DNA of 64,000 nucleotides from positions 226,921-290,920 of the forward strand of contig ML992505.1 of NCBI GenBank assembly GCA_010093995.1, written 5' to 3'. This document shows positions 3,365-42,000 of the stretch, in pieces (position 1 is the first letter of the stretch; each line of letters starts with the position of its first letter). The notes below the pieces were generated by a model. It searched no databases. It saw only the letters and a list, made by a program, of their open reading frames with translations, and was not told the DNA's origin. The position numbers and the translations under genes are program-made. The stretch is from Elsinoe ampelina (lineage: Eukaryota).

Positions 3365-6300
3365 ATGGGCGTAGACACCCGTCGACCTCCCTTGCCAGCT
3401 CCAACAGAAGATCCGAGCTCAATGGACAACGAGACTGATCTCGCGACCGACATTTCCCGTCGCACCGATCGCACCTCCTACTCCATCCCCGAGGACGGTA
3501 GTCCCATCACTATTACGACCTCGAAACCCATTACCACAAAAGACAGTCTGCACAGACGAAATCGATCACAGACGTCACTTCTCATCGAATACTTTGAGGC
3601 AGGGAAGAATGGCGACAAATCAAGATCGAAACCAAGCGTAAGAGTAAAGGTCACACCCTCAGCCGCGCGAAGGTCCAAGAACGGCAGCGGAAGTGATTCA
3701 GTTCAAATCACAGGCATTGGGAAAGATAGGAAGCCTTCATACACTCGCCGCATCTCTCTTGGAAGCAAGACCGAGACTAGCGAAAAGGTCATCATTGACG
3801 GGACAGAGGTTTCACGAGTATCACGCTCGACAGACTCGAATGGCTCAGCTCACCCGCCTGTCGAAGTCGAAGTTTTGAACCCGAGCGACCTCTCCAACTC
3901 ACGACTGTCCAGAGATTTGCGTTACGTGGAGAACACCTCGGACATTTCTTCCATGCCACCGGATAGCTTGCTTGAACCAGTCACGCACACAGCTACGACG
4001 GAAAGCGACACAGTCCAGGCTGGAAACCCCTTGAACCGGAAACGGAGTCGTAGCCTGGAACGAATCACGACAGATACGAAAGAGACGACACATCTGAACC
4101 CTCCCAGCCACGCCAGGACTCGCAGTCTGAGTCGCGAGCGCATCACACAAAAGGTCATGGAGAAGTTAGCCGGCAGACCGGTCGAGTCGACCAGTCGCCG
4201 TCGTAATGTCGAGTATGAACCGGACACCAAGCCTGTGAAGGAGCGGCGCCGACGTTCATCGAGATCGCATCACACCGAAGATGTCATCAGCCCTGGATCC
4301 AGTCAACTATCCTCCAACATTACACAAAGTCAAGCATCGTACCGATCTGGGAACTCGAAGGTCTCTCTGACAAATCCACGATTACTGGAAATGGTCGAAG
4401 ACACTGTCAGACGGCTGATCATGCCTGAGTTGCAGCAGATGAAAACACAACAGAAGACGACCAAGAATCTAGAAGAGTTTGAAGAGAGCCGGAGAAGCTC
4501 AGCTGTGGACCGTGATTCTCGCAGCGGGCTTGACCGAAGCATCTCCAAGTCATCCAGCACTCCCAACATTCGAGGCAAGCCCAAGGTCGTCCTGAATCGA
4601 CACGACGATGATCCTGGAGAAGTCTTGTCGAGAGGCGATTCCGAACGCATCAAGGTCAGGAGGTCCAGCCGAGGATCCACCGCAGAGTCCGACTCCCGAA
4701 GACGGCGACGATCATCGCGGGCTGACTCCGTCGAGGAGGAACGTACAGAGCGGAAGACCAAGTCGAGCCACAGTAAACGTGACACTGCAGCCGCAGCCAT
4801 TGCAGGAGGCGTTTTGACTGCAGCAGCGCTCAAGCATCACAACTCTCGCGACAAGGACCGGAAGCATCGACTGGCTGACAGAATCGATCACAACGAACAC
4901 GACAGCTACACTCTCTCAGACAGCTTCACGGATACTACGGAGCGCGATCATGGCCATCGAATACGTACAGACGCCCCGCGGATACCCTTCTTGGGCGGAC
5001 CTACCGACTCGGAAATGACAAGGCCGTCCATCATGTCTGCTTCGACCGAACGACCTCTATCTTCTCACGTCGAATCACTGGACACTCCAATTCAAGAGGT
5101 GCCTAGACGTACCTTGGGCGAGTCGCATTCAAGGGGCACATCACGTTCTCGTGGCACATCAGTCGATACCAGAACTCCAGAGACTGCACGTAACGTGGGA
5201 GAGAAAAGCAGCGTTCGATCACTGACCGAGAATATCGAGCGCCACAATCACAGTGGGTCTTCCACCCCAAGTAGATCACGCAATCCCGCACTTGTGGCTG
5301 GGGCGGCCGGACTTGGTGGAGTCGCAGCTGGCTATGCACTCGGTAAGAGCAAATCACCCAAGACGGGCAGGTACGAAGAGACACAGCAGAGCATCAGTCC
5401 AGTGCAAAGTGTGTCCAGCTATCGAGATGATCTCAATGATCCTTTGATCCCGCAAGCTTTGAGCCCGAGAAGTCCAACATATCAGGATGGGTTCAGGACG
5501 GGGGCATATGTACCCTCACCGCTTTCGACCCCCGGTCTGAATGGAGCAAAAGGCCACCTTCCTCCAAAGAGTCAAAACGTCGACTCTTTCGCCGCACGAA
5601 GCAAGCGTCAGAACTTCCGCCCGGACTCTGAACTGTACGATGACACGACGTCAAGGGGCGAAGAGGTCGATGAATGGCTAGAAGAGGAGCACAGGAAGAA
5701 CGACAGACTGAGGGACTCCATGACTGATGGATCCTTCCGCGATTCCTACATCGAAAACAGAGACTCCTACATCGACAACAACCGAGACTCATACACTGAT
5801 GCAAATCGGGATTCGAAGTACACGGTCGACAGTGGCAGCATTAATACCGGCACATCTGAGCGCGGTATCGCTGCTATCGCCGCCACACCCCACTATGTGA
5901 ACTTGCCCATGGGCGTCGAGTCGAATGTGGCGTCACTCATAGATCCATCGACAGTCGACAGCTATCAGTCTTCTGGAATCAGCATGGATCGTCCCTATCA
6001 GGATGTTCATTCCCTACGCGACGATGTTGAGACCCATCAGACTCGCACAGAAGCACCAACCCAGCACGGATATGCTGCGATCATTGACGAGCAGGATGCC
6101 AGCTCTCGAGACTCGAAGAATCTTGGTCAGTCACCTTTGCCAAGCGGTAATCTCGAGCGTCAACGGACTGTTGTGCAATCTCCGAGGCAAAGTGAAGCTT
6201 CTTCCCACCATAGGCGGTCCTCGCATGCTTCCACACCCGTGCAGCTTGGTGCGAGTGGTGTCCCAGATCTCAATGATCCCATGCCAGAGATCGGACACGG

Positions 6301-9124
6301 CCTCGACGCGGCTTCCGTGTCAAGTGCTCGTCATTCCATTCCGGTCTCGCCAATCAGTGCCAAGGAAAGCAGAGAACGATTCCAGTCTGGTCTTGTCGAT
6401 CCGCAAAGAGACAACCGCTACTTCTCATTCGAGCAAGACGACGATGTCTCTCATTCCAGCAAAGGTCACGGCAAAGCTGCTCTAGCAGCAGGTGCAGCAG
6501 GTCTTGCAGCAGGTGCAGCTGTAGGCGCGGCCGCCAAGAAGAGCCGATCCTCCTCGCTAAGAAGTCAGGAACGTCGCTCTTCGGTGGAAGATCTTGAGCG
6601 TGAGGAGACACATCTCGAGCCGCACACTTACCAAGACGGACTAAAGCCCAGCATAACCCCGGTGAATGCACAGCCTCCCCATGACGAGGGTTATGTCTCC
6701 GGTGCCTACGCTCGCTCTGTTGACACTCCACAAGCACGAAGACACGACGAAAAGACTTATAGTCAGGAGGATCTCGCCGAGTATGAAGCTGCCATGGGAC
6801 AGGACGATGTGTTCCAGAACCCCAAGCGTGAGACTTTCCTCAGCGGCAAGTCTGATGGTCTCGACTCTCCCCTGTATGAGAGCGCCACTGGTCGCGGTAT
6901 CGACAGGATCCATTCCAAGGACATCGTGGCTCTGATGGATCATTTGACGGTCCGTGATGCTCAGCGTAATGCTCGCGATACTGAGATTCTGGTCACGCTT
7001 GTCCGCAGTGCTGCCGAGATGCGTCAAAACTTTGAGGATCTCAAGAAGTTCATCAAAGAAGAGGATCGCATGATCATGAAGAACACTGATCGTAACGCCG
7101 ACTCAACCATTCAGCGTGTATTGGGAGGACCCAGACCACAGCCTCAAAGCTCGCCGCGACCTCCACGTGTGGCGTTCGACGAAGAATCCGTCTCTTCAGC
7201 CAAGCGACAGAATGTCTTTAAGCGCGCTCTCAAGGGTCTAGGTGGTCGCAACGCGAACGACCTCGCAAAGATCGAAGATATGCTTAATCAACTCTTGGAT
7301 GACGTCGAGTACCTCAAGGATGCACAGTCGCAGGGTGTCAATAGCCAGCCAATCTCATCCGCCGGCGATAGACATCCTCCAAGCATAGCGGAGAGCCGTA
7401 ACGACGGCTTTTCATCATACGAAGCGCTTCGTGCCAACACCGGATCTGGGTATGAACCCGAAGGTCTGGCTGGAACTGGCTCAACTCCGAACCACTCTGG
7501 CAACGTTCAGCTTTCTCCTCCGGCAAAACAGACTTTCCATTCTGGCTATGACGGACGTCGTGATTCGATTAATCGTGTCAGCACAGTCTTGGAAGGTGAC
7601 GAGGATGAGTTTGACAGAGATGACTCCCTGACTCCGAAGCCACTCGCGACAGGCAAATACCCAAGTCCTATTCAGGACACTCGAAGGAGTGGAATGGTCT
7701 TCGGGACTCCTCCACAAAAATTTGCCTCTGCAGACAACAGTCTTGAGAACACGCCCGATCGCCGGAGTAAGCAGTCATTCGTGCCAAAAGTTTCAAGATG
7801 GTCCAAGACTACCGCCTCGTCTGCTCCAGATGGCTACGACTCGAGAAGACAGTCACATGAGCAACGACCACTCTCAGACGCTTCACTTGGCAGCCGGGGC
7901 ATAGCTGCTCGTGATACCCAGTACTACGACTACGACGACTACGACAGTACTGCGTCTCGTTCACAGCGGCATGCACAAAGCGTGCGGAGCGGTATTAGCG
8001 ATATGACACGTTCTCCATCACCTCTGATCCCTTCCGAAGCAGGATCGGCAAGCAATCAACGACAATCGTATTCCACAACACGCGATTCTTACCACTCAGC
8101 GCCTCGCTCATACAACGCCCCTGCTGGCCAGTTGCCGTCGTCTGCTTCGCCAACTTCTTCACGTCGCTTGTCGAACAACACTGATCGCTCCGCGGCTAAC
8201 GAGTTGCATCTTCCCATCGATGAGGATGAGGACGACTACGACGATCCAAAATACCATGCTCACAGGAAGAGTCTGCTTCTTCATGCCCCAGTCGCCGTGC
8301 CAGGGAAGAAGCCAAACCATGGTAGCACGCTCGAACGTGGAGCTATAGACTACGAGGATGATGGCAGCGAGCTGGGCAGCTTGCCTGGAAGCTTGAATGG
8401 TGGTATGCCAGGTGGCATCCCTGGCAATGTCTCCAACATATCCGGCTCCGATCTCAGCCAGAGGTCAATCGACACCGAATTCGACCCAAACATGTGGGGA
8501 TCAAACCCGGCTCTCTCCCTGGCCCGCGCTCATCGTCTCGGCAAGATCAATGGAGGACAGCCACAGCAGAGCCCGCTCCGCAAAGCTGTCTCTCAGAGCA
8601 TCAGCCCAGCTCAAAGCCCAGTCGAGGCGCTCCCTAGCCCTCGCAGCGGTGGCGGCAGAGACGAACTGCCCATTCAACGCCCAGAAGATCTGCCTATCAA
8701 GACAAGCAAGAAGATCAATCCAGCTCCCGCAAGGCAATACGACGATTACGAGGAAGATCCAGAGCGTCGCTACACCCGCTCTCACGCTCCACCAAGGACA
8801 TTCGACAGGCTGTACTATTCGTCTCCACTCGGAAGCGGACACCTCCTAGAGCCAATCCAGGAGGTGAGGTACAGTCTTGAGACAGACGTGAGCACCCCGC
8901 ATATAACACCTGAGGAAGCCAATACTGATGACTCGCAGAGAACCCCTCCGAGCAGGGAGATCACACCCGAGCCATCAGTGACGCCTCAGCCAGCTGTTGG
9001 TGCGGGAAGCAAGCTGAACCCGTTGAGGAAGATCACTGGCCCGAGACCAATGGGGAGCAAGGCATCTCCAGGCGGAGAGGAGGGAAAGGGGAAGCTGATC
9101 AAGAGAAAGGCCGTTGGATCCTGA
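3365..9124 (+). CDS. Large (1919 aa) S/R/D-rich, mostly disordered protein of unknown function
   Basis: Uninterrupted 5.76-kb ORF. Ordered-looking islands: SLLIEYFE..KPSVRVKVTPS, LLEMVEDTVRRLIMPEL, and DIVALMDHLTVRDAQRNARDTEILVTLVRSAAEMR followed by a coiled-coil-like segment. Confidence 0.85.
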   Translation: MGVDTRRPPLPAPTEDPSSMDNETDLATDISRRTDRTSYSIPEDGSPITITTSKPITTKDSLHRRNRSQTSLLIEYFEAGKNGDKSRSKPSVRVKVTPSAARRSKNGSGSDSVQITGIGKDRKPSYTRRISLGSKTETSEKVIIDGTEVSRVSRSTDSNGSAHPPVEVEVLNPSDLSNSRLSRDLRYVENTSDISSMPPDSLLEPVTHTATTESDTVQAGNPLNRKRSRSLERITTDTKETTHLNPPSHARTRSLSRERITQKVMEKLAGRPVESTSRRRNVEYEPDTKPVKERRRRSSRSHHTEDVISPGSSQLSSNITQSQASYRSGNSKVSLTNPRLLEMVEDTVRRLIMPELQQMKTQQKTTKNLEEFEESRRSSAVDRDSRSGLDRSISKSSSTPNIRGKPKVVLNRHDDDPGEVLSRGDSERIKVRRSSRGSTAESDSRRRRRSSRADSVEEERTERKTKSSHSKRDTAAAAIAGGVLTAAALKHHNSRDKDRKHRLADRIDHNEHDSYTLSDSFTDTTERDHGHRIRTDAPRIPFLGGPTDSEMTRPSIMSASTERPLSSHVESLDTPIQEVPRRTLGESHSRGTSRSRGTSVDTRTPETARNVGEKSSVRSLTENIERHNHSGSSTPSRSRNPALVAGAAGLGGVAAGYALGKSKSPKTGRYEETQQSISPVQSVSSYRDDLNDPLIPQALSPRSPTYQDGFRTGAYVPSPLSTPGLNGAKGHLPPKSQNVDSFAARSKRQNFRPDSELYDDTTSRGEEVDEWLEEEHRKNDRLRDSMTDGSFRDSYIENRDSYIDNNRDSYTDANRDSKYTVDSGSINTGTSERGIAAIAATPHYVNLPMGVESNVASLIDPSTVDSYQSSGISMDRPYQDVHSLRDDVETHQTRTEAPTQHGYAAIIDEQDASSRDSKNLGQSPLPSGNLERQRTVVQSPRQSEASSHHRRSSHASTPVQLGASGVPDLNDPMPEIGHGLDAASVSSARHSIPVSPISAKESRERFQSGLVDPQRDNRYFSFEQDDDVSHSSKGHGKAALAAGAAGLAAGAAVGAAAKKSRSSSLRSQERRSSVEDLEREETHLEPHTYQDGLKPSITPVNAQPPHDEGYVSGAYARSVDTPQARRHDEKTYSQEDLAEYEAAMGQDDVFQNPKRETFLSGKSDGLDSPLYESATGRGIDRIHSKDIVALMDHLTVRDAQRNARDTEILVTLVRSAAEMRQNFEDLKKFIKEEDRMIMKNTDRNADSTIQRVLGGPRPQPQSSPRPPRVAFDEESVSSAKRQNVFKRALKGLGGRNANDLAKIEDMLNQLLDDVEYLKDAQSQGVNSQPISSAGDRHPPSIAESRNDGFSSYEALRANTGSGYEPEGLAGTGSTPNHSGNVQLSPPAKQTFHSGYDGRRDSINRVSTVLEGDEDEFDRDDSLTPKPLATGKYPSPIQDTRRSGMVFGTPPQKFASADNSLENTPDRRSKQSFVPKVSRWSKTTASSAPDGYDSRRQSHEQRPLSDASLGSRGIAARDTQYYDYDDYDSTASRSQRHAQSVRSGISDMTRSPSPLIPSEAGSASNQRQSYSTTRDSYHSAPRSYNAPAGQLPSSASPTSSRRLSNNTDRSAANELHLPIDEDEDDYDDPKYHAHRKSLLLHAPVAVPGKKPNHGSTLERGAIDYEDDGSELGSLPGSLNGGMPGGIPGNVSNISGSDLSQRSIDTEFDPNMWGSNPALSLARAHRLGKINGGQPQQSPLRKAVSQSISPAQSPVEALPSPRSGGGRDELPIQRPEDLPIKTSKKINPAPARQYDDYEEDPERRYTRSHAPPRTFDRLYYSSPLGSGHLLEPIQEVRYSLETDVSTPHITPEEANTDDSQRTPPSREITPEPSVTPQPAVGAGSKLNPLRKITGPRPMGSKASPGGEEGKGKLIKRKAVGS

Positions 9125-9607: not shown

Positions 9608-11540
9608 TCATCCCCTCCCCCTTTGCCCCTTCTGGAACCCCCCCTGCCTAGGCTGCCGCCCATACTCCCTCCTCCCCTTGATTTTCTCATCGGCGCTCTT
9701 CATGCTCGCGCCCAACTGTATATCGATGCGCGGGGGGTGGGCGAAACCGAAGCTCTTGGCCACTTTGACGAGGTCGAGCGAGTTGACGTTGAAGACGGAT
9801 CGTAACGAGTGGGAGGCGTAGGCTTGGAGGTAGGAGCGGTAGCCGTCTTTTGCTGACTGGGGGGAGGGGTTAGCATGAATGGAAGGAAAAGGAAAGGGGG
9901 AAAGGGGGGGAGGGAGATGGACGGACCTTGTTCAAGTAGTAGTTCTTCCCGATTAGGCCCTCGAGTTGTGACTGGATGTTGAGCACCTTGCCCATTGGCA
10001 TTTCAAATTCCACGAGGGGAACACGGGCTTCTTTGAGGTATTTCAAGAACCCGACCTCGCTGGGCTGCAGGAACATGAGACTCTTCCCCTTGCCGCCACT
10101 GCCTCGCGCTGTTCGTCCCACGCGGTGGATGTAATCCCTCGGATCGTCGGGGGGGTCGAATTGCACGATCCAGTCTACGGCTGGGATGTCGAGACCGCGG
10201 GCTGCGACGTCGGTGCAGATGAGGGTTCCCTTTTTGGCGTTGCAGAATTCGAAAAAGGTGTTGGTTCGTTTTTGTTGTTTTTGTTTACCGTGCAGGTCGA
10301 GGACGGGGAGGTCGATGTAGTTGAGGAGTTCGGAGAAGTACTTGACGCAATTACAGGAAGAGAAGAAGACGATGACTTTCTTGTGGGTGTGTTTCTTGAG
10401 GAAGGTGAAGAGGAGGCGGAAGCGGAGGTCGGAGTCGCAGATTACGTAGCCTTGCTCGAGACCGGCGACGGTGGAGTGTTCTTGTGAGCTGTCTACGTTG
10501 ATGTAAAGGGGGTTGGGCCGGAGCGAGATGCGTGCAAGATCAGAGACCTTTGTCGTCTGAGTGGCGGAGAAGAGCATGGTTTGGCGCTCTTCTGAGGGAA
10601 GAACCTTGACAATCTGTCGCATTTCGTCCTCGAACCCGACTTCCAGGATGCGGTCTGCTTCATCTATGACGAGCGCCCGAGCGTTCTTGAAGATGAAGCC
10701 TGGAGTGTTCTGCAAATGATCGAGCAGTCGACCTGGCGTGGCAATCAAGAGGTTGACACCTTTCGATAGCTTCTCTGCTTCTGCTCTACGATTCGCACCA
10801 CCAATCACGATACCGAAGGTCTGCGAGTGATGTGCCATGAGCTCACGAGCGACACCGAAAATCTGCAGAGCAAGCTCACGAGTGGGAGAAACGACAATCA
10901 CACCAGTACCATTCCGCGGCTTGAATCGCAATGAGTGTAGCATCTCAACAGCCGGGATGAGGAACGCAAGTGTCTTTCCAGATCCAGTCTTTGCTGCCCC
11001 GAGCACATCCTTCCCAGCTAGCAAAGGTGGAATGCCCCGCCGTTGTATCTCTGTCATGCTCTTGAATCCCATGTCATTGATCGCTCGCATCGTCTTCTCG
11101 GAGAGTTTGAGCTCGGTAAAGTCCTTCGGGTCGTTGTCGGCGCCAGGGAGAGAGACCCCGTTGGATGATGGCAGGTCAGCACCCTCGTCGGCCTCTTCCA
11201 CCTCCGCACCATTCTGTGGTGCGTCGTCCTCGTCGAGACCTTCGAACTCCGAGTCGGCGCCCTCATCATCGCCGTCCACTGTGGTTGCGCCGGCCTCTGC
11301 GGCAATTACTTTCAGGCTGGAGTTGAGCTCCTCCTCACTGTCCGCACCTCCCTCATCTTTATCCTGCTCTGCCTCTTCGATCACCTTCTCTTTGCGCTTG
11401 TGCTCTTTCTTCGACTTCTTCCTAGCTTCAACATCTTTGCTCGCAGGAGTGGCGTCTGTCGGTCCGGCCGATGTCGAGTCATCTACGGTCTTTGCGTGCT
11501 TTCTCTTGCGCTTCCGCGAGACTTGGTCTTCGTTCGACAT
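9608..11540 (-). CDS. HAS1: ATP-dependent DEAD-box RNA helicase HAS1/DDX18 (~620 aa)
   Basis: [26 protein letters not shown] and HRVGRTAR motifs. Removing intron 9857-9926 restores the HAS1-type tail [24 protein letters not shown], ending at TGA 9610-9608. Confidence 0.96.
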
Positions 11541-12052
11541 GATTGCTTGAACAAGAGTTGCTACAGAAAAAAGTCTCCTACCGCAAAAAGATGCCGGCCC
11601 GCATCGGTGAAGTCAGGCAAAATTTCTGCCAGAGCGGTGAGAGGGGCGGAAAGATCGAAAGTGAAGGCAATTCCGAGCCGCACTCTCCTACGCCACCTTC
11701 AGCACTAGATTGTGCTTATGTTCCTCTACTCAGACATCGGATTGAGCAGACTTGGTCGTGTACAAGCATCAACCAATATGAACTGTGCAGATATGGTCCT
11801 CGAGACAAGGTATTTATAGCAGACCATGATACAGCATGTTTGTATACGAGGCCTAGCGCAGCACGGTACATGAGGCCTCCCATACCAACGAGACCGCTTT
11901 CAGGCAAGTGTCTCGACTTCTCTTTATCATCATGACTGCACATTCATCTACGCGTTCCACGATATAGACACTCGCTGTTCTGGACTTTCCCACTTCGACC
12001 ATCCGTGGTGTTTGGTGTTGAGCGTAGTAGGCCAGCAGGCCAGCAGTCCAGC

Positions 12053-15498: not shown

Positions 15499-16200
15499 AT
15501 GTGGGCCGAAAATGAAAGCAAGGAGATCGACATTGATGCTCGGATAGTGGAATCTTGGGCGGAGATCGAAGACACCTGGGGCTTTGTCGTGTATCGATGC
15601 ACCTACAACGACGACGGAGATTGGAAGGAGTTCATGGAATATCTGACCGCATACGTACAAGAGGCACTACAAGCGTATGGGGTGGAGCATTTGATGAGCA
15701 AGCTGAACTGGCACGTACAGGAGGACAGCTCTTTCGAAGGAGCTACTAAAGCTACTATCAGGCAGTGAGTAAGCACTGGCGACCCACAAGTAATTGCACT
15801 AAGCTATGGAAGAACGTTTGAGGATTGGCGATCTCGTCAACCGCAGATAATATCCCCAAGAGGCGACTACTGTATCATGGTCGACCAAGACAGCCTGGAT
15901 TCAGTTCTCGTCGCCGGAAAGCCGCCCGATGACTTAAGTTGTCTCGAACCCTATGTCATTCTGATTGATCGTCAGTGGAGACAGCTCTATGAAGATGAGA
16001 CTGAGGTACCCGACGACAGCAAGCCAGATCCAGCCAGGCGGCTTCTCGACCAGGATTGTGAAGCACTCGAGGGATGCAGGATGGAAGATGTAGGCTGGAC
16101 TATGGTCAATATTGCCGCAGTGCCCATACGGATGTATTCCGTACTGGATACCGGATGGGACATTGTCTATCAGCGACCACCGACGGTGTCTAATCCATAA
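15499..16200 (+). CDS. Small acidic 'WGFVVYRCTY' family protein, copy A (217 aa)
   Basis: Intron 15765-15812 joins ...TWGFVVYRCTYNDDGDW...WHVQEDSSFEGATKATIRQ|TFEDW..SPRGDYCIMVDQ...GCRMEDVGW...WDIVYQRPP. Clearly paralogous to seven other copies in the window. Confidence 0.88.
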
Positions 16201-16572: not shown

Positions 16573-17033
16573 ATGGGTGACACCTGCGATATTCTTAGCC
16601 TTCTAGAGGAGTGGGCCGACAGCACCTGGGGATTCGTCATCTACCGCTGCACATACTCAAGCGATGAGAAATGGGCTCATTTCATGGAGCTTCTTTACGT
16701 TCACTCCAAGGAATGGCTAGAAGGTGAAGACCTTGGGCAGATCGTTGACAGTCTGGAGTGGACTGTCCGGGAAAATCGCATGTTCGAAAGCGCATCGAAG
16801 CATGAATTGAGAACGTATTCCGTGGACGTTCCCACCTGCAGCTGACCTGACGCGCTGACATACATGACAGATCTTTCAGGGACTGGGTGGGCACCACATC
16901 TGCGGGCAAGAGAAAGGTAAACCCTCGTTACGATTATTTCATCGTAGCAGATCAGGAGTGCCTGGACTCCGTCCTCGATCGAGAAGATCCGACCGAGCTT
17001 GAAGTGAACGGCAGAGCGTACGTAAAATTGCTG
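16573..17033 (+). pseudogene. WGFVVYRCTY family copy B: lacks the C-terminal third and reads in frame into copy C
   Basis: WGFVIYRCTY, intron 16815-16870 at the family position, then SFRDW...PRYDYFIVADQECLDSVL...AYVKLL. The conserved VGW...RPP end is absent and no stop occurs before the copy C ATG at 17115. Confidence 0.7.
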
Positions 17034-17114
17034 AGGCATATACTCGAGTGTCTGTTCCCTCTGATTCGGGTCTTGCAACCCTCACAAGCTGGACCCATAG
17101 ACGATTCGAATAAA

Positions 17115-17792
17115 ATGGAAGACGAAGCCAGAGCAGTTCAGTCATGGACAGAGGTAGAGGGATTCTGGGGCTTTGTCATCCATCGATGCACGTACAGGGA
17201 TGATGACGAATGGGATCTTTTCATGGCCCACCTCAATGCCCATGCACAAGCGGAATTGGATGCCAACAATGCCGGCCATCTGATAAAGTCACTAAGATGG
17301 GAAGTCCAGGAGGATATTTCGTATCAGGGCGCTAGCAAGAGCTTCATCAGGCAGTGAGTGAGTCCGGTGATAGTCAGCCGAACTTGCTAAACAGTCACAA
17401 GGAGATTCCAGGGATGGAGAGAGAAGCAGGGTCGAATTACATCGCCACGGGGCGACTACTGCATTATGGTCGACCAGGACAGTCTAGATTCTGTACTTGT
17501 GGCTGGGATACCACCTGACTTCGATTCAATGACAGAGCCCTACGTTGATCTAATCGATCGTCGCTGGAGACAATTATACGTCGACGACACAGAAGTCATC
17601 GGCTCCGAAGAGCTTGACCCAGCGAAGCCTCTCATGGACGAAGGGTGTGAAGAAGTCGAAGGTTGTAAGATGGAGAACGTAGGCTGGACTAGGGTCGACG
17701 TATCCTTGTTATCGGTTCGCCTTTTCACCATTCTCCACGACGTGGGCTGGGAGATCGTCTACAAACGTCCACCAGAACTCTCTAGCCCATAG
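17115..17792 (+). CDS. WGFVVYRCTY family protein, copy C (209 aa)
   Basis: MEDEARAV..FWGFVIHRCTY; intron 17354-17401; RFQGW..SPRGDYCIMVDQ...GCKMENVGW...WEIVYKRPP. Confidence 0.88.
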
Positions 17793-17993
17793 TTTAGCAC
17801 TCGCATGATGTCGAAGAAAGAACGGAAGCTAAGCATTCTTGCTGGAGATGAGCTATCGAATGCCCTGCCACGGGGGAGCGTTATGGCATTGTTTATATTT
17901 GATCTCGAGCTTGGTTATTCAACGTTGTCTCCAGTCTTGGCTTCGAACCTATCATCACCTAGGATCGAACATGGTGCTGGACGAACGGCCATG

Positions 17994-18682
17994 TCAAGGT
18001 TTGACCACCACAGGTGGCCTACGATACACGCCTTCCCAGCCAGGATCGTCGAGGATACTGAAAGCTCTGGGAGCTACATGACTGATAGCAAGCTTCATCC
18101 AACCGACGTCGTCCATGCGGCATCCATCCAGTGGATCGAAGCCTTCATCTGCCGCTTGCCTTTCCCCCTCTGCCGCTCTATCTACCTTGTCTTCATAGCT
18201 ACCATCGAAGTATTTCTGGCGCCAATTCTTGTCGATGATGTAGACGAATGCTTTGTTCTCGCTGTCGTACTCCGGCGGCGCAGGAGCTGCCAGCGTAGCG
18301 TCTATGCAGTCCTGGTCGACCATGACACAAAAGTTGGCCCTGGGTGAGGACAGTTCAGAATGCTTGGATGCCCATTCGTGGAACCTTCTATCTCTATATC
18401 AGCGGTGGCTGAATGGCATGGCAAAGATTGGACTTACCTTCTGACCAGTTCTTTGCTCGCACCTTCAAGCTCGGGCTTCTCCTGGATAGCCCAGTCCAAT
18501 GTGTCCATGAGATCCAGGTAGTCCTCATCGTCTGCCTCGAGTGACTCCCGAACATGATCATTGAGAATCTTGAGAAAGCGCGACCACTCATCGTCGCTTT
18601 TGTATGAGCATCTGTATATAATGAATCCCCATACTCCCTCCTCTTCTACAATCTCACGAGCATACTCTGCGTCGCTGCTCAT
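17994..18682 (-). CDS. WGFVVYRCTY family protein, copy D (212 aa)
   Basis: VWGFIIYRCSY; intron 18388-18437; RFHEW..SPRANFCVMVDQ...GCRMDDVGW...WEGVYRRPP. Confidence 0.88.
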
Positions 18683-20159: not shown

Positions 20160-22664
20160 ATGCGTCTGAACGCATTCCTGCTGCTCCTTAGCTGGTCTAC
20201 GGACTCTGCCGTGGATGCGTTCTCAATTGGCCGCCGAGCAGACAAACAGTCCAAGGAGACTTTCGACCAAGAGACCAAGGCATTCGAGAAGGAAGGTCTG
20301 TGCAGATCATACGAAGGCAATGGAGACACTCTATCGACTTGTAAGGTATATTGTAACCAGCCATCCAATATCACTTGCTACGGTGGCGTTGAGGTAAACG
20401 GTAAAAAGACATACCACTACGACCCGGACGGCCAGCCATGGATCATCGGCAAATGTGAATGCAAGGTGCCAGAAATAGCCGTCTTCCTGGCCACCGAAGT
20501 GCTTGAAGCTATGCCTCTGGTAGCTGGCATCGGGTGTACTATCCTGTTTGGAGCCTTGCAGATGGTCATCGACATCGGCACTGCTGTCATTCCTGGAGGA
20601 GCCGCCGTCAAGGGAGTCGAGAAAGGTGTGCAAGCCGCTAAGACTCTGGTTGAGAATGGTAACGACGCTGCTGGCTTCACCGGCTGGTTCTCCAAGGTCT
20701 GCAATCCTACCAACTCGGATGAGGTTGCTCGTATCAACGCCGATGTTGGCAAATTCTTCGACCCGCTTGCTGCTGCACCTGACTTTATTGGTGTGGGAGC
20801 TGGATGTGTTTTGCAGGATAAATCCAAATGCAAGAAGAACGATAAGAAGCCGGACGAGTCATCTAGGGATAAGCAGCCGGATCAGACGACGAAAGACAAC
20901 CAACCCGATCAAACGTCCAAGACAGACGAGTCGAAGACCACAACCACCGACAAGAGTTCCACAGCCGGTACCAGCACAACCACGACCACGACCACGACCG
21001 GTGGATCGACTACAACGACTGACGGATCCACCACCACGACAGACGCTTCTAAGACGACAACCAACACTGATTCGTCTAACACGACGACAAGTACAACCGG
21101 GGACTCCTCGGCATGTGTTACGACAACGACAAAGTATGCACCGGCAGCGACGGACGCCGTATCTGTCTGCAAAGTCGCACCGGATGTATGCAAGAACCCC
21201 GATGACCTTGAAGCTGCAGACTTCATAGATGACGTGGTCGACCACACCGGCATCGAGGCTCGCGATCTCGAGAAGCGTAGCAGTGCTCGCCCATTCAATA
21301 TCGCTCTCCCGAACAACGGGGAGATCAAGATGTCATCGATACCTTACGTCGAGCGTCCGGCGTTCGTTGAGGAGCTGCGGACCACGACCGACAAGGATTT
21401 GTACACCAAGGTATTCGACTACTCTACTTCCAAGCTTGATGATGTCAAGTGTGGTCCCCAAAAGCTTCCTACTGGCAAGGACATTGAAAAGTATGCGGTG
21501 GAGCATATCGTCGAGGTAGGGTCAGTCCATCCGCGATTGACCATCAGCGAGCTGACACTGCATAGTTACAAACGGTCAAGGACTTCGTCAAGTATGCCCT
21601 CGTCGGCGACATCTCTGTGCTGGATAGTCGATCGAAGGCGTGGACAAACAAGATCCCCGCATCCGGCACAACTGCCGCGGGCGTCAAGGTCATCTCGAAG
21701 GACTACTTCCTCAAGCCCTGGGGCGAATCAATCCTTGCTGGCAAGGGGCTGGGCAAGGTCGGCAAGGGAACTGCGAGCCAGGATGTCCCGGCACAACGAG
21801 TTTTTGAAGCGCTCGGATCCAAGTCCAATAAGGCCGCTTTCCTCCTGCTCAACTCCGAGGTGAACAGTATGAAAGCTCTCATCTGGGGTAGGAAGCGAGG
21901 CATGGACCCAGCAGAGTTCAAGAAAGCAGTCAAAGTATCTGCCGACCCAGGCAAATACGCAGACAGCGGACGTGCCGGGGTCAGTCCTACCTCCGTCGAC
22001 CTCGTGTCACAGTGGATGTCCATCTTCCGCCTCGTAAGCCCCTCCGTCTCCGTCTCCCTCCCTTATCATACTAAAGCTCGCCTAGGTCATCGGCACCTAC
22101 CAATACCTCAACCACAAAGAAACCAAATCCCGTCTCTGGGAAGAACTCGCCTCCGTTCGCGCCGAACTCACCAACATCGAGACCAACGGTCCCGCAAGCG
22201 GCGTCGGCCTCATCGCTCTCTGGGACACCTTTGTGCCGGCGTACTTCCAGCGCATCGAGGAGAAGACCAAAGAGTGGTACGACAAGTACCTCAAAGACGC
22301 CAGGGTTGTTTTCGAGAAAGCAAAGAAGACGTTCGACGACGACAAGGCGAAGCGGCAGAAGCAGTGTGCCGCGGGCAAGAGGCCGAATGATGAGCCGACG
22401 CCGCAGTATATTGAGTTCACACTCAAGACCATCGCGAAGTATGAGAAGATGTCGGATAAGTTGAAACTGCCGAAGGAGAAGGATCTGAATGTGGATGTTG
22501 AGTTGGATCTCCCCAAGGATGATGCCGAGGATGGCTCGTCGGGGTCTGGGACCTCGAGCACGAGTAGTGTGGGAGATTTTGTGCAGTCCGGGATTGGGGC
22601 GCAGTTGGGGGCGATGTTGAGTGCTATTCAGACGATAGAGGATGCGAAGAAGGCTCAGGGTTAG
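20160..22664 (+). CDS. Secreted multidomain precursor T1 (~800 aa): Cys-rich N-domain, Thr-rich linker, KR site, C-terminal EHIxELQ domain (putative toxin)
   Basis: Introns 21516-21565 and 22034-22085 join three ORF-track pieces into one frame. Signal-like start MRLNAFLLLLSW; C..YC..C..GKCEC; poly-Thr linker; LEKR (21273-21278); YAVEHIVE|LQ...GSKSN...VNSMKALIW. Collinear with the paralogue at 27916-30650. Confidence 0.88.
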
Positions 22665-23344: not shown

Positions 23345-23535
23345 ATGTCCACGAAAGGTCCTCGCGGGCCCGTCACAAAACCGCCGGAGCATTGGATCCC
23401 TCGTTTCCCAATGCCACCACAGCCACCTCCCCCTTCACGACCTCTCCCAAGCGCAAATACAGGACGGCCTCCTCCTCGTTGTAAGTCCCAGATTTCACGT
23501 GCCTCACCTGCTGAGTCTCTGATCGGCGTTTAGAA
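23345..23535 (+). CDS. Possible 45-aa Pro/Arg-rich micro-protein
   Basis: TATAAA at 23226 and 23263, ATG at 23345, and a GTAAGT...TAG intron (23481-23533) whose removal creates the stop T|AA. Confidence 0.3.
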
Positions 23536-34332: not shown

Positions 34333-35647
34333 GCGACGATGCCCTTCCATACCCTGCATCATACCCGCGTATTAATAATGAATCATTGAAAATTTGAATT
34401 CGGTCGCGAGGAAAAGGAATTAGAGCCATCCGTTGGCTGGTGGCCGGTGTCTATCACATTACGGTGCATCTGCACTTCTGGCTTTTTTCTAATGGAGTTT
34501 ATGATCTGGCGAGGGAGATCTGAGGGAGACAAGAAGGAGGTCGAGAAGACACTTGTAAATAAGGCTTTCTTTGGGGTTTCCATAGGATGATAGTATAGCT
34601 TAGGATAGGGCGGAATGGACGAGGTGATAATACTTGTTCCTTTGAACTTGCGTGACATGGCATGGCGATCCTTTGGTATCCTTCCATCCATCCAGCCTGT
34701 CTTTATCATTTCGACATTGCACAAGTCGCCTCGATACGCCATCTGTAATCACAATCTCCACCTTTGAAAAAGCACGTGGGCAAAACCGGAACCACAAATT
34801 TCGGGCATCCATCTCCAGAAATAACGACATGCAGCCTCCTCCCACGCACAGAAATGCAGCGAATAGTATCGCACCGCGTGTCGTGCATTGGGACTACATC
34901 ATTGAGCAGGTAGACATATCTCATTCGTTCTCTGGCCCGTTTGGTCACTTTCCATTCGCTCCACGCAGGTATCGCGCACGTGAGGTCCACGTTGCACCAC
35001 TTGGTACCGAAGATGGTTTTGTGAGCTGTGGAGCGGTGCCCAACTTCGGGTATGAAATGGTCTTTTCACCCGCTTGTTATTGACCCTTTTTGTAGCGACA
35101 CTGGATTTTGGTTTCTGGATTTTGTTTGAGCAGCGATCGAGCGAGCGAGCGAGTGTTACTACGATAATTCAAACCCGGTGGATTTGGCGGGAAAACTGGT
35201 CCTGACGGTAGCCGATACCACATCGTCACCGTATGCTTGGGCCCTAGGAATTTACAATACCCGACAGGAGACTACGGCTCGACAGAGGTCGACGTGAGAG
35301 GACAAATTGTCCTTCTGATCTCACAACTGCTCGACTGATCAAGGACTCGAAGATTCTGGATCAAGCTCAGTGACCTCAGACGCTCTTCCCTTCGAGGAGG
35401 CACACCAACACGCATGGTTTATATGAACGAGGATCGCACCTGGAGATTGATCACTACAACTAGTCTACAGTCATATCACGGCTTCTCCTGTCGCTGTGAT
35501 CAGTGACAAATTCTGATCCTTCCAACCCGCCTCACATCTGTCCTTGTCCCTCTCGTTCGGCAGATTTAGTCATATCAATCTACTTTTCCGCTTTCCAAGA
35601 CCACTGGAACCAACTCCCAAACACTGTATACAACACCACCATCAACC

Positions 35648-37531
35648 ATGTACCCCTCCCGCCCAGCTGGACCACCTCTGAACTTCGGCCCCTCACGCCC
35701 CATCCGCTTCCTCACTTCCAAGGACCTCTCCCCACCCACCTCCCCTCCCCCGACCAACACAACCTTCACCCCCACGCCCACCCCCAGCTTCACCTCCTCC
35801 TCCTCCCCACCCCAACCCTCCACTCGCCCCATAAACTACGCAGCAGACTACACCCAAAAACTCACCACCTGGCAGGCCAGCGGCTGGGAAGGCTACCGCC
35901 GCGCCCTCTCCAACGCAGGCAAGACCGACGCAGAACTCCAAGCCGAAGCCGACGCCAAGCGCGCCGCGGAGGAGGCAGAGCGGAACCGCATCATCTCCGA
36001 GCGTATCGAGAGAGCGCAGGCAGAAGCCGATGCGTTAGCGGCGGAAGCAGCGGAGAAGGAAGCGAGGCGGGAAGCGAAGCGGGCGGCGAAGGAGAGGGAG
36101 GAGGAGGAGAGGGCGAGGAAGAAGGAGGAGAAGAAGGCGAGGGAGAGGGAGAAGGAGGAGGAGAGGAAGGCGAGGGAGAGGGAGGAGAAGGCGGCGAGGA
36201 AGGTGAGGGAGCAGGAGAGGAAGGTCAAGGAAGTGGAGAAGAAGGAAGCGGAGAGGGCGAGGAGGGAGGAGAAGAAGATGCAGGAGAAGGTGAAGGAGGG
36301 GAAAGGGAAGGGGAAAGAGAAGGAGGGGAAGGGGAAAGGGAAGAAGGAGAAAGAGAAGGTGGGAGCAGGGGATGGAGGAGGGGAGGTGTTAGTTGAAGGA
36401 GCCGGGGAAGGGGAGAAGGCAATACCGAGTTTGGAGGATATACTTGCTGAGACGGCCAGCGTGACGGCCAGCGCGGAAGGGTCTGCTGTAGTGGAAGACA
36501 AGGGGAAGGGTAGTGGTAAAAAGTCCAGTGATAAGAAGGCGAAGGAGAAGAGCGGTAAGGTCAAAGAGGAAAAGAAGAGCAAGGAGAAAGAGAAGAGTCG
36601 TAAGGAGGAGAAGAAGAAGTCCGGGAAGAGTGCGAAGGGGAAGCATAGCAAGACGGGAAGTCGGGAGGTGGATGAGATGCCGGTGTATAGCGTTGGTGGA
36701 GCGGAGCTGGACGGGGCTGATGTGGTGGTGATGAATGTTGGAGGTGGGGAGGGGCCGCCACCGCTACCACCGATGGATTTGGATGAGCTGGTACCGCCTC
36801 CCATGGACTTGGCTGATGCAATACCGCCACCAACGGAGGCGCCTGATGTGGAAGAAGTAGCATCTGCTGCAGTGGAGGATGCGTCGGAGGACACATCGTC
36901 TTCATCACCTGCTGAACAACAAGCAAACGATGCTGAGCCAGCCGCTGAAGTTGTAAAGGCTGTCGAAGAAAGCGTTGTCGCGGAGGAAGCGCCCGTTGCC
37001 GTTGCAGAAGAGCAAGCTGCAATAGACGATGTGCCATCGTCGAGCGAGAACAACACTGGATCACCAGATGAGCCTGCAAGCGAGGTCACACCTTCCCCGG
37101 ATGAAGCAAAAACACCTGAACCTGCGACAGAAGCCATTGAAACTGCCTTGGCTGATCCGCAACCCGAAGCAGAAGAGGCTCCGGCTGTGATCGCGGAAGA
37201 TACTGCAGCTGTGGTCGTAGCGGATGCTGCAGAGGAAACTGCGAGCTCGCCAGATGGTGGCGCTACGTCTGCTGAAGCACCAAATGTATCCGATGACAAG
37301 CCTCTCGAAGCAGTGCCAGAGCCCGGTCCAGATCTGATCGTTCCTACAGAGATGCTACCACCCCCACCGGGTATGGACAAGCCGAAGAGGGTCAAGATTT
37401 CGGAGGAGCTGTTCGGTGGTGACGACAGCTCTGATTCGGAGATTGAAGACAACCACGTGCATTTCGTGGGAGATGTGCCGAGTCCGCCTGGCAGTGAGAA
37501 AGGAGACAAGCAAAAGAATGGGGGGAAGTGA
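35648..37531 (+). CDS. Low-complexity protein (Pro-rich N-terminus, E/K/R coiled-coil, acidic Ala/Pro-rich tail)
   Basis: 627-codon ORF with a charged helical repeat region. No recognisable domain; start uncertain. Confidence 0.6.
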   Translation: MYPSRPAGPPLNFGPSRPIRFLTSKDLSPPTSPPPTNTTFTPTPTPSFTSSSSPPQPSTRPINYAADYTQKLTTWQASGWEGYRRALSNAGKTDAELQAEADAKRAAEEAERNRIISERIERAQAEADALAAEAAEKEARREAKRAAKEREEEERARKKEEKKAREREKEEERKAREREEKAARKVREQERKVKEVEKKEAERARREEKKMQEKVKEGKGKGKEKEGKGKGKKEKEKVGAGDGGGEVLVEGAGEGEKAIPSLEDILAETASVTASAEGSAVVEDKGKGSGKKSSDKKAKEKSGKVKEEKKSKEKEKSRKEEKKKSGKSAKGKHSKTGSREVDEMPVYSVGGAELDGADVVVMNVGGGEGPPPLPPMDLDELVPPPMDLADAIPPPTEAPDVEEVASAAVEDASEDTSSSSPAEQQANDAEPAAEVVKAVEESVVAEEAPVAVAEEQAAIDDVPSSSENNTGSPDEPASEVTPSPDEAKTPEPATEAIETALADPQPEAEEAPAVIAEDTAAVVVADAAEETASSPDGGATSAEAPNVSDDKPLEAVPEPGPDLIVPTEMLPPPPGMDKPKRVKISEELFGGDDSSDSEIEDNHVHFVGDVPSPPGSEKGDKQKNGGK

Positions 37532-39095
37532 TGCAGATGTGGGTTGGGTCCGGCGTCTCGATATGTTTGCAAATATTATGATTGACGATGATTAATGAAA
37601 GCGTGCAGCAGCGCAGCATTTGCTATACCTCTAAGAACATGTTCAGACGTGAGACGTGAGACATGCTGAAAGCAACAGAACCATCGAGCCCCTTCTCGAG
37701 TCGGTCAGCACTTCCGACAGCTTCGAAGACGCTCTCCGAAGAGTCTCGTCTGTCTCAAAGGCGCAAAAGGCCTCGGCGCACAACCTCGTGGAAGCGTTTG
37801 AGATCTTGGGACGGCAGAGCTGCTCAGATGGAGCCATTGAAACGGGAATATGTGGTGAGAAAACGGCCTTCTTCGGTGCGGCCGGCAAAAAAAAGCGTCG
37901 CAGCGACCATGACGACGAGATGCCCTGAAAGCAGTGCTCAGGATACGAGAAGTCTTCTTTAGTCAACCAGACGCATGGTGGTATATCTTCATCCGGCGGT
38001 GAACAAGATCCGATCTGTGCTAGGGACGAGCCGTGGTAGGGATGCAACCACCACGGGGCATCCGAACCACAGCTTGATGAGCCGGAGGATTCCCATGTGG
38101 TAGGCCTGAGTTGAGAGCAGACAATCGGATGAGCTAAAGCCGACGCTAATACGCTTGAGATGGCCAGTTCGGTGAAGCCGTTGCAACGCAGAAATAGGAC
38201 CTGTGCCTCTGCCGGACCACGAGGGATGGATAGAAGGAAAAGTGTCCGTTCGTAGTGGTCGTCATATCAGCAATGCCAGCAACGGGCAGCTGTTTGACGA
38301 CCCGTGTCTGGAGGGGTTGATGTGAGGGCCTTGGTCATGATTCATCTAAATCGACTAGAGGAAGAAGACCGGAAAGAGAGCCGTGCATTTTCCAGGGTAA
38401 TTGCAGCCTGCGTGTCTTCAAGCTAGCCAAAAGTCTCTGTATAAAGTTGGATAGCGCCCCTGGTCCATTGCTTCAGAATAAAGGTTACAGACAAAGGCGA
38501 ATGGATGAGTTATGGCGGGCCGAGAATTCTTGTGTGAAGAGTCGCTGGAATGGCAACAGTAGACCAACGGTGCGAACAGGAACCTTACCATGGCGAGTCC
38601 GTGTGGTGCAGTCTTACAGAAAAGATGATTGTATAAGCTACAGTTGCTTCAGCCCGGTCGTTTGGCCGTTAGACAACGGTGTACCTAGCATCCTGAATTG
38701 CTCACCTTCCAGCCATCTGTGCCATCTGTGCTGAAAGACTACGTCTGTGCATGCACCTCATCGTCAAGTCCATCTGAACATCGTCGTCGTCGACATCCAA
38801 CCCATACCAGCGACATCTTCCCCTCGGTGGTGTGCATACTCGATGCCGACTAGCTCAAACTACACGACTCAAGCACGTCGATCTCCCACGACGACTTGAC
38901 CTCTTTCAGCCTTCCCGCACGGCTTTATGCGTCGCAGATAGAGTACCGAGCTTGGCCACACCAGTCGACGACAAAAGGACAAAGCGATTTGACAGCGAAA
39001 CCCCTGCTCAGGTTGCTCGGCTTCGGCCCTCGATCCCATCCCTGCCCTGAAGCGTTGACAAAGGGCCACTCCCTGCACCTTTGGACCTTTGGACA

Positions 39096-42000
39096 ATGGC
39101 AACCGACCTCATCGCCAGTTCTCCCCCTCTCCCACAACATGAGCTGTACTTCCATAACCACTCCTCTATAGCAGTCGCTGCCACTCCCGACATGTCGCGA
39201 CGTGGTCCGCCCTCCGTGGCCAGCGACAGCACTTCGGTGGTTAGCAGCCTCGCCGCCGCCGGCATTCCCCCTTACCTCACCTCGATAAATCCAAAGCCCG
39301 ATTATGTGTCGCAGGACAGCGCCTCTCGTATCACGACAGAATTGTACAGGGCGCAGAGGGATCTGGACAGCGAAGATGAGGATAGTAATACAAGGGAACC
39401 AGACAGTCTGGAAGTGACCGACGGCGCAACCCAATATGTGAACAGCTTTCTCGATAAGCTGCTCCATGACATTCTCTCAGTCGCAAACACTACACAACTC
39501 GCACAACTACGAACAGCGACGGGGAAGACACTGCGAAAGAGTCTGGGAGTCGAGGCGGTACAATATGCCGACGCCAATCTCGAGGATCTCCTCGCCCTGG
39601 AAGACGAGGAGGAAGAGCAAAGACCAATATCCAAGGACTCCAATTCGAAGTGGAATCTAGAGTATACATGGAAGCGCTCACGACTACGGGTTATGATGCG
39701 CAGCGAGAAGAGCGAGTTTGACATTGACGACGACGAGCGATGGGTACAGCAAGAGGCATTGATACCGCCTGGCCGCCGCTTCTCAGAGAACACCGCCATC
39801 ATTTCTCTCCAAAGCGAGATCTTCCTTGCCGGCGTGCTAGACTATGTCGCCGACACCCTCTTCAATCTCGCAATTATTCCGGCCTCCATCCGCATGCGCC
39901 GCGGCAGCAAGAGATCACCGGCGCAACAAAGCAATCCAAACATCCTGGTTATTGAAGAGCCGGACCTGGAGAAAGGTGTGCTCAACTCCCCACTCGACAA
40001 ACTCTGGCGCATGTGGCGCAAGTCACAGCGGCCTCGCGGCTTTGCTGGCACACCGAGACACGGACACAGTTATTCCAATGTGAGCAGTCCGGCGACCACA
40101 AGGCGCGAAAGTGACGTCTGGGGAGATGGCCCTTACCACGATGCTTCGCAGGATCTCCAGACCCCGCGAGGCATGCCTGGAGAGTTCATCGAGACACCAG
40201 CGGTCGAGTACAACCAGCGGGATGTGGTTCCCGACGCAGACGACCATCCAGAGCATGTAATCGCCTCGAACATCCCTCTCCCGCAAGGACAGCGAGACGT
40301 TGATGAGATTGAAGTGCCTGGACTAGCGAGAGATCCGGATGAGTACGAGGAAGAGCTTGTCGAGGAACCCCGACGCGCCAGCTACAACCCTCCCTCGAGG
40401 AAGACTCGTCAATCCGAGCAGACTGAAGATGGCGCTCAACGACCAGGCATGCAAAGGAGACGATCTATTTCAGCACCTCCGCCGTTTGCTGCGCGCGACT
40501 TTGCTCCAAACAAGAACGCCAACATCTCAGAAATCCCCGCTGAACCTTCAGCAAACGAAATTTCGTCACTGCCCGCCCCGGAAAACACGTTTTCGCTCAA
40601 GCGCGAGGAAGGGCCCGCAGGAGATTCTTCTGAACAGGGTACAAAGGTCGAGTCTACTGGCAAGGTCGTGGTAGACTCTCAACCGCGGGAAGATACGGGA
40701 CCATCGTCTGGCAAAATTGCTGCTGGTATCGGCGCTGCTGCTGCAGTCGGAGCTGTGGGCACCGCTGCTGCTGCGTCAAGATGGACAGATCGCAACGACC
40801 AATCGCCCGAACGAGAGGATCATTCACCCACGGATGGGTCTCCTAGAGGCAACCGCCGAAATCGAGAAGCAGCAGTTGGCTTTGGATATCCCAATGGCAT
40901 TTCCCTACCTGGACAAACCGCGACTGGTGAAGTGTACAAGCATAAGCACATGTCGGTCGCTTCTTCCGCAGCCTCAGAACCTGAAGTACCACCAAAAGAT
41001 GTGTCAAATCCTCCAAGCGAGCGATCACCTTCGGAATTGTCAAAGCTCAGAGCTGGCAGTCCTGGTTCAGAGACCGAGACGAGCGAGATCATGTCACCAC
41101 GGGACTTTATGGCGTCACGAAATCTGCAATACACTCGATCGACACGCTCCGACTCTTTGCCTGAGCACCCCATGAACCCGCTTGGCTCCAACAAGCCACC
41201 GCCCGCTCCTCGAAGCAGAGGTGCTTACGACTTCAGCAGGAAAGGCGATTCCAGTCCCGTCAGTCCCATCAGCCCTGTCGATAACGGCCTCGGCAGCATC
41301 GATGAAGCTGGTAAGCTGCCGAACATTGATCGCGAGCAGAAGCCGACACACAGGAAGACGAGTGCTCCCGCGGGCCGACTGCAAGATGATCTTGCCCGGG
41401 CACGAGGCTCACCAAAGGTCCGACAGGCCTCGTTACAAAGTGATTATAATCAAGGAGACTCCAGCCCTGTTCATCGGAAAGAGAGCTTGCGCAGAATCGC
41501 AGTCGAGCGGAACGGCTCGCTCGTATCTCTTGTCGACGAAAATACTCACAAGGTCCGAAACAAGGCGCCAATCACTAGCTCATCAATCACATCAGCAGAA
41601 GACTTTGACAGTCTGTTGAATGGAGGCGAGACGATTAAGATGACTCTCTCTCCATCAAGCGTCAGAGAAGTACCAGTAAGTTCTATCTATATTGTTCAAC
41701 GTATGCACGGACTGACCATCCCCCAGTCCGCCCCTCCGTCCCGTAACGGCTCTGTTGATCACAACGCCCTGGCCAAACTTTCCGGCGGTTCCTCACCTCG
41801 AATCGGTAACCTCCTACAAAGGAAGCAAGGCGATGATGGTAGTATAAAGTCACCCTCCATTGGGTCATCGGACAAGAGCAATAGAGGTCGCACGGGCAGC
41901 ACAGCTACACAAGACAGCAGAAGGTCCATCAGCAGACCATCTGTGCGCAACAAGAGCAAAACAAGAGCTGGGTTGATGGCCCGGGAGCCAACGGTACAAA

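Follow-up and report, generated by a model that had tools for sequence, protein, structure and literature searches.

Within a 64,000-nucleotide stretch of the Elsinoe ampelina genome (GCA_010093995.1, contig ML992505.1, positions 226,921 to 290,920 of the forward strand; the whole stretch is called the window here), one gene, T1, appears to encode a secreted modular fungal nuclease toxin, with the products of a surrounding array of small genes, I1 to I8, as its antidotes. The toxin is likely aimed at other fungi, and we give this explanation as a whole a probability of roughly 60%. The locus may thus represent an undescribed toxin-and-antidote system that fungi use against each other. In the mechanism that we infer, the T1 precursor would enter the secretory route, and Kex2 would cleave it behind KR373. 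The front module, which in relatives is a chitin-binding GH18 chitinase that usually has a LysM gene beside it, would carry the 42-kDa basic domain into the target cell, where H449 would activate water and E448 and N552 would hold a divalent metal. The substrate cut would be DNA, with RNA less likely. The acidic I proteins, presumably cytosolic, would cover the active-site face and protect the producer. A cognate I copy would stand head-to-head with each toxin gene, and extra and orphan copies would give protection from related toxins that competitors make.

T1 is a three-exon gene, and its first intron, of 50 nucleotides, splits the motif EHIVE|LQTV between exons 1 and 2. The GT..AG joint of that intron is spliced out in contigs from three of four probable RNA runs, from two studies, and intron 2 is spliced out in one of the four; here and below, splice evidence comes from contigs of these runs, whose RNA nature was guessed, none being recorded as RNA. 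The protein runs from a signal-like start through a Cys-rich and hydrophobic module (residues 27 to 228) and a Thr-rich linker to the sequence IEARDLEKR, and continues with a 369-amino-acid (aa) basic domain and an acidic tail. The N-terminal module gave nothing above the cut-off in a Pfam scan; its 19-residue hydropathy is as high as 1.95. The domain after KR begins SSARPFNI and has a mass of 42 kDa and an isoelectric point (pI) of 9.3. Word-based homologue searches with T1 found three Elsinoe proteins and nothing more. Its orthologues are P0002 from E. fawcettii and P0003 from E. batatas; the gene model of P0003 is without the entire EH..N..K core, through deletion or mis-annotation.

The sequence-only reading had described an EH...N...N-x2-K signature, like that of His-Me nucleases, behind a Kex2-type site in T1. 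The signature is there, and its residues could be located: R377, E448-H449 (21501-21506), E452, Q454, G536-S537, N540 (at 21827), and N552-x2-K555 (21863-21874) make up a His-Me-like core, and the ordered motif never arose when the T1 domain was shuffled 20,000 times. A profile of the domains of T1, of E. fawcettii and of the T1 paralogue T2, run against 1.84 billion representative proteins, matched 225 at E<=0.001. Conservation was counted over the best 150 of these 225 matches plus P0002, giving 151 rows, many of them partial gene models, and only rows spanning each column were taken. The counts, which lean upward because the query motif helped recruit the rows, are 47/48 for R377, 80/82 for E448, 142/143 for G536, 129/143 for S537, 123/143 for N540, 140/144 for N552 and 143/144 for K555. 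The histidine, whose loss among homologues, together with a lack of nuclease activity, would have refuted the earlier reading, is kept in 81 of 82 rows. Identity of the relatives around the motif is mostly 16 to 38%.

The structure model of the T1 domain has the order strand with His, long insertion (70 to 80 residues), strand, and helix with Asn. In the model, H449 closes strand 72-76, helix 176-186 carries an Asn at model position 179, and N540 falls between the two strands. The region after KR, proposed earlier as the nuclease domain, does contain such a core (374-563), but it also includes a helical bundle (564-742) and the short acidic tail. Three structural matches of the domain were found, all weak and all His-Me nucleases (CAD/DFF40, Vibrio endonuclease I, and phage T5 SciA). 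The nearest named Atlas clusters, GmrSD_C, GH-E and AHH, are likewise all His-Me families, with scores of 0.75 to 0.79; they serve as leads only, with all Atlas structure rows at a template modelling (TM) score <0.4 and feature rows to named families <0.8. Foldseek against the PDB and viral models returned nothing, re-examining 283 Foldseek chains turned up no match either, and VIA with the whole domain gave only generic helical matches; those of the helical bundle were likewise generic. Sequence searches of Pfam, NCBIfam and the PDB with the domain found nothing significant. A polar metal ligand at helix position +4 or +8 is frequent, though not universal, among members of the His-Me superfamily (Jablonska et al. 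2017, PMC5714182); none is conserved at 556 or 560 of T1, and the conserved residue is K555 at +3. Conservation, the strand-His/strand/helix-Asn model and the weak but exclusively His-Me structural matches support the earlier nuclease reading. On these models the domain very probably adopts a His-Me (beta-beta-alpha-metal) finger with a 70- to 80-residue insertion, and there is a good probability that it is an active nuclease.

A Kex2-type site ahead of the domain is a trait of the family. Among the 66 rows with enough upstream sequence, 43 have KR 15 to 40 residues upstream of the anchor Tyr, against a background of 12.9% in random windows of the same proteins. EHIxELQ tails do occur on fungal chitinases, as the sequence-only reading stated: GH18 is carried by 9 of the 75 longer family matches scanned, none of which has a Pfam family over the domain itself, and two such genes lie in this genome. 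T1, as had been claimed, has no chitinase module, and none of the genome's 22 GH18 matches is on its contig. At one of the two loci (G000:C1 2.701-2.711 Mb; L011:143-9998), a LysM gene stands head-to-head with a CBM18-GH18-nuclease fusion, its tip following LEKR, accompanied by two I genes. Twenty of the 151 family proteins were looked up, and the named ones are from filamentous ascomycetes. One narrow motif scan each of prokaryote genomes and of viral contigs yielded no relative of the domain. A weak genome match at C10:970k is a different protein. The genome also holds a DUF1524-like secreted nuclease, which we take to be the same thing as DH-NNK, as a separate gene of about 200 aa (G000:C1 617 kb; L096:924-1764), which across the exon tested shows up to 83-85% identity with proteins from actinobacteria.

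The front module of T1 is shared as well, occurring in 8 of the 151 family proteins. A third copy stands alone, ahead of a linker and RRRRKR with no nuclease tip, at G000:C5 about 583.4-584.7 kb (L008:6378-7743, minus strand; also G000:C5:584k). At G000:C2 about 1.058-1.063 Mb (L185:1908-6758 and L190:8408-9610, minus strand), LysM-CBM18-GH18 is followed by the front module (E of 1.6e-5 and 3e-4 for two pieces) and a different tail. The word C-x-R-D-E-W-P-P in that tail is presumably NucA/NucB-like, which Pfam did not confirm. One tip therefore sits on several modules, GH18 or the front module, and one module stands alone or with another tail.

T2 was earlier read as a second protein. Its nuclease part is open, but in-frame stops at 28298-28300 and 28882-28884 interrupt the front half, so that only the nuclease part remains open; contigs over the stops have no alternative letters, and the T2 start is out of frame with the part that follows. 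The layout is that of T1, with RRRALMKR at 29176-29199 and the motifs EHILE|LQTV, QRVFE..GS..N and N..KAKMW, and the motifs said to be shared by the two, EHI(V/L)E|LQTV, QRVFE..GS..N and N..KA..W, are present in both; the nuclease domains are 37% identical over 352 aa. The annotation has T2 as P0004, 444 aa from an internal Met just before KR, with no signal. The E. fawcettii orthologue, P0005, is intact and lies two locus tags from the T1 orthologue, and T1 as well as the E. fawcettii orthologues of T1 and T2 have hydrophobic signal-like starts. Two CT..AC joints (29728-29784 and 29987-30053), one of them seen in two studies, indicate an opposite-strand spliced transcript over the T2 nuclease region.

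The checkable steps of the sequence-only reading held, but it left out the flanking immunity-like array, in our view the strongest evidence for a toxin that works within cells. A small two-exon gene with the motif WGF(V/I)xYRC(T/S)Y is present in eight paralogous copies, which surround T1 and reach T2. All eight of the genome's close matches fall between 15.5 and 27.2 kb in the window, and eight distant ones lie at four other loci. Spliced coding introns were seen for six of the eight genes. The copies are 41 to 56% identical to each other where measured, and the I4 orthologue in E. fawcettii (75% identity) has a locus tag adjoining that of the T1 orthologue. Among the 120 I relatives listed, out of 152, the median pI is 4.8, and a crude score points to a hydrophobic start in 4. 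Searches of Pfam, NCBIfam and PDB sequences with the I family found nothing significant; DUF6924 was rejected, its best match (14.5 bits, E 0.046) lying under the Pfam cut-off of 24.4 bits. We judge that the I family is probably an inhibitor of the T1-type domain.

Several further observations concern the I genes. I2 runs in frame into I3, the two being annotated as one 371-aa protein (16573-17792), and 12 of 13 listed strain differences fall within 17181-17966. A plus-strand GT..AG joint at 23480-23534, in two of the four runs, marks a transcript between T1 and I5, and a short Pro-rich open reading frame starts near 23346. A tandem array of four distant I genes lies at G000:C10 218-222 kb (L010:415-4348), with no nuclease in the examined flanks and with N stretches downstream. 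In P0182, from an Aspergillus lentulus record, a single model joins a LysM protein to an I protein, probably adjacent genes fused by annotation, as at several metagenome loci.

A direct contact between the T1 domain and I4 is predicted. ESMFold2, run without alignments on T1 residues 374-742 and I4, gave a score of 0.86, against 0.00 for the best of three controls, with contact agreement between runs of at least 84% and a partner predicted local distance difference test (pLDDT) value of at least 85. In benchmarks of the score, 51 of 78 solved microbial pairs reached the mark, as did 2 of 108 mismatched ones; so did 39 of 65 novel solved pairs and 2 of 126 unrelated pairs from eukaryotes, and 7 of 44 blind neighbours. 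Neither the T1 domain nor I4 matches a solved sequence. The predicted contacts include the conserved R377, E452, Q454, N552 and W559, H449 itself not being among them, and 14 of the 37 predicted contact residues of I4 are acidic. The modelled complex supports but does not establish binding of the T1 domain to an I protein, and does not tell which paralogue.

The linkage was also seen in metagenomes, at loci chosen by the I motif alone (the best 80 of 110). The nuclease domain is present in 17 of these 80, and in none of the reversed decoys. After merging at 80% identity it is found in 10 of 48 clusters and in 6 of the 15 clusters of at least 10 kb, where a density of three loci per 28 Mb would predict about 0.07 for the 670 kb that were read. 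Of the nine clusters with GH18, seven have the domain, and the remaining two end at contig edges. Ten other GH18 stretches of this genome have neither the domain nor an I gene. The window, in turn, combines I genes with no GH18 or LysM, so that the linkage goes with the domain and not with the chitinase. Three observations weigh against this linkage. In about 27 kb around a third, more distant GH18-fused copy (G000:C6 1.461-1.471 Mb; L180:365-9829), with an EHVFEGQ-type tip, a LysM gene and P450-like neighbours, no I gene is present; the domain is missing from 9 of the 15 long I clusters; and this genome has three I loci that stand as orphans within the flanks examined. The flanks of 14 I loci without nuclease, read by eye, revealed no obvious other toxin.

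Secretion and dibasic processing would also suit a His-Me nuclease that works outside cells, on extracellular DNA as food or in escape from plant defences, with the I proteins guarding against mis-sorted enzyme. The nearest solved matches include the periplasmic endonuclease I, and a dedicated inhibitor is no proof of a toxin; NucA/NuiA and barnase/barstar are secreted bacterial nucleases with dedicated inhibitors. However, eight diverged copies and orphan arrays exceed one enzyme's need, the chitinase and hydrophobic-module fusions suggest delivery through a fungal wall, and the genome already holds a plain secreted DH-NNK nuclease, so we hold this explanation unlikely. Likewise unlikely is a nuclease effector that adds to necrotic lesions in the plant host, its chitinase-free front module adapted to plant cells. 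The closest proteins do come from plant-pathogenic Elsinoe species, and T1 has no chitin-binding parts, but the family is also in records of Trichoderma, Cercophora, Polytolypa, Zopfia and Lojkania, often on chitinases, and an expanding immunity array suits fungal conflict better than plant attack. Overall, we lean toward other fungi as the target of T1.

It is quite improbable that the conserved residues serve another activity, or mark a fold that merely resembles His-Me, and that the I proteins are chaperones or assembly partners: the structural matches and, as leads, the nearest Atlas clusters are His-Me throughout, and the I proteins have no signal peptides, so they should not encounter the domain on its way through secretion. 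A within-species self/non-self or poison-antidote system (hyphal-fusion incompatibility or spore killing) using nuclease forms without a signal peptide would fit the signal-less P0004 model and the antisense joints over T2, but is very improbable given the signal-like starts of T1 and of the E. fawcettii orthologues and the extracellular nature of the chitinase and LysM partners.

The polymorphic-toxin reading given at the end of this paragraph, if true, would name the killing activity of some group C chitinases. These enzymes have long been tied to fungus-fungus killing, and they would gain a further payload and an antidote; the literature examined names separate tRNases and Hce2 tips only. 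The His-Me nucleases would gain a eukaryotic family, and an inhibitor family without a solved relative would come to light; fungal genomes would be shown to contain bacterial-style immunity arrays, and the system would bear on biocontrol fungi and on the hold of pathogens on their niche. We see evenly balanced odds for the broader proposition that filamentous ascomycetes have a widespread nuclear polymorphic toxin system of their own, in which the Kex2-released tip, from an undescribed His-Me nuclease family, is carried by killer-toxin-like chitinases or by a translocation module without a chitinase, which can bear other tips too. An acidic immunity family, likewise undescribed and present both in tandem arrays and as orphans, would then keep a record of earlier conflicts, much as polyimmunity loci do in bacteria.

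The features of the window are collected in the table. Beyond those listed, long open frames of 1933, 653 and 1329 aa, without a Pfam family, lie on the plus strand at 3323-9124, 35570-37531 and 39051-43040.

Table. Genes and T1 segments in the window (positions count from its first nucleotide; "runs" are the four probable RNA runs).
Feature	Position	Strand	Detail or evidence
DEAD-box helicase	9870-11612	-	Pfam
I1, immunity candidate (P0162)	15499..16200	+	intron spliced in 4/4 runs
I2, shortened copy in frame with I3 (jointly P0160)	16573..17114	+	intron spliced in 3/4 runs
I3, immunity candidate	17115..17792	+	intron spliced in 1/4 runs
I4 (P0163), divergent from T1, predicted T1-domain binder	17994..18682	-	intron absent from spliced joints shown
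T1 gene	20160..22664	+	800 aa; exons 20160-21515, 21566-22033, 22086-22664; residues 135-800 = P0001 (hypothetical protein, Elsinoe ampelina); introns spliced in probable RNA contigs
T1 signal-peptide-like start, RR25-26	20160..20237	+	9-residue hydropathy peak 2.14, resembling E. fawcettii orthologue
T1 N-terminal module 27-228, presumed delivery	20238..20843	+	Cys-rich part, then hydrophobic stretch 106-146
T1 Thr/Ser-rich linker	20877..21149	+	sequence composition
KR372-373 in IEARDLEKR, Kex2-type site	21273..21278	+	dibasic site conserved among relatives
His-Me-like core 374-563, across intron 1	21279..21898	+	conservation, structure models, structural matches
Helical bundle 564-742, across intron 2	21899..22487	+	structure model; structural matches generic helical ones only
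I5, first exon only found, seems partial	23811..24116	-	paralogue match
I6, immunity candidate	24312..25019	-	intron spliced in 4/4 runs
I7, immunity candidate (P0161)	25344..26038	-	intron spliced in 3/4 runs
I8, divergent from T2	26470..27203	-	intron spliced in 4/4 runs
T2, T1 paralogue	27916..30650	+	front half broken; nuclease part 29200-30407 open, all motif residues kept
TRP-like channel	32051-34375	+	Pfam
S9 peptidase	55460-56782	+	Pfam
FAD-binding enzyme	59151-60668	+	Pfam
Zn2Cys6 transcription factor	61204-63232	-	Pfam

A literature search that reached few subscription papers found no paper on the domain or its partner; the supplements of the preprint cited below, of Zhang et al. and of Jablonska et al. 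could list these families. In the His-Me superfamily as defined by Jablonska et al. (2017, PMC5714182), strand 1 ends at its C terminus in a nearly invariant His that follows D, E or H, the loop between the strands has a conserved Asn, and the core helix has an Asn or His in its first turn. The T1 domain resembles them in the acidic residue and His ending strand 1, an elaborated Asn loop, strand 2, and the Asn in the first helix turn. It differs in having no sequence match to Pfam His-Me families and no zinc knuckle, and in its 70- to 80-residue insertion, N-terminal hairpin with an invariant Arg, and 180-residue helical bundle. With the Tox-DHNNK/DUF1524 clade (GmrSD_C, PF07510), which is listed in ascomycetes (Zhang et al. 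2011, 2012; PMC3113570, PMC3482391), it shares a D/E-H dyad, Asn residues and a helix N-x2-K in like order. However, the dyad of the family here is EH (80/82), and the two helix Asn of the definition are not both present. PF07510 had no match at E<=10 in 30 relatives and none at T1 in the genome scan, and an hhalign alignment of the domain to DH-NNK scored below shuffles, the template being shallow. The I family matches none of the immunity families listed for that clade, which are SUKH, SuFu and Imm33.

Group C killer-toxin-like GH18 chitinases with Hce2 (Ecp2-like) tips likewise combine a chitinase with a C-terminal effector domain, but the tip here is not Hce2 (PF14856 was unmatched in the Pfam scans), and T1 is without the chitinase. 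The closest system is that of the zymocin-like clusters of Pezizomycotina (Heneghan et al., bioRxiv 10.1101/2024.10.25.620242; PMC13556262). As described there, these are nuclear and comprise a GH18 chitinase, a LysM-only gene, an anticodon RNase with Glu-8 that is made as a small secreted protein of its own, and a non-secreted immunity gene; in that study they were not found in Dothideomycetes. In contrast, the nuclease here is fused behind KR, is His-Me-like, also sits on a chitinase-free module, and is accompanied by up to eight immunity-like copies. Membership of the T1 locus in such clusters was rejected, with 0 of 22 GH18 matches on the contig, GH18 only at the two related loci, and no separate Glu-8 gamma-toxin. 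Bacterial polymorphic toxins with polyimmunity loci (Zhang et al. 2012) offer a likeness in the shared delivery module with an exchangeable C-terminal nuclease tip, in proteolytic release, and in adjacent and orphan immunity genes in tandem arrays, whereas the T1 system is eukaryotic, contains introns, and is secreted through the endoplasmic reticulum with a Kex2-type site.
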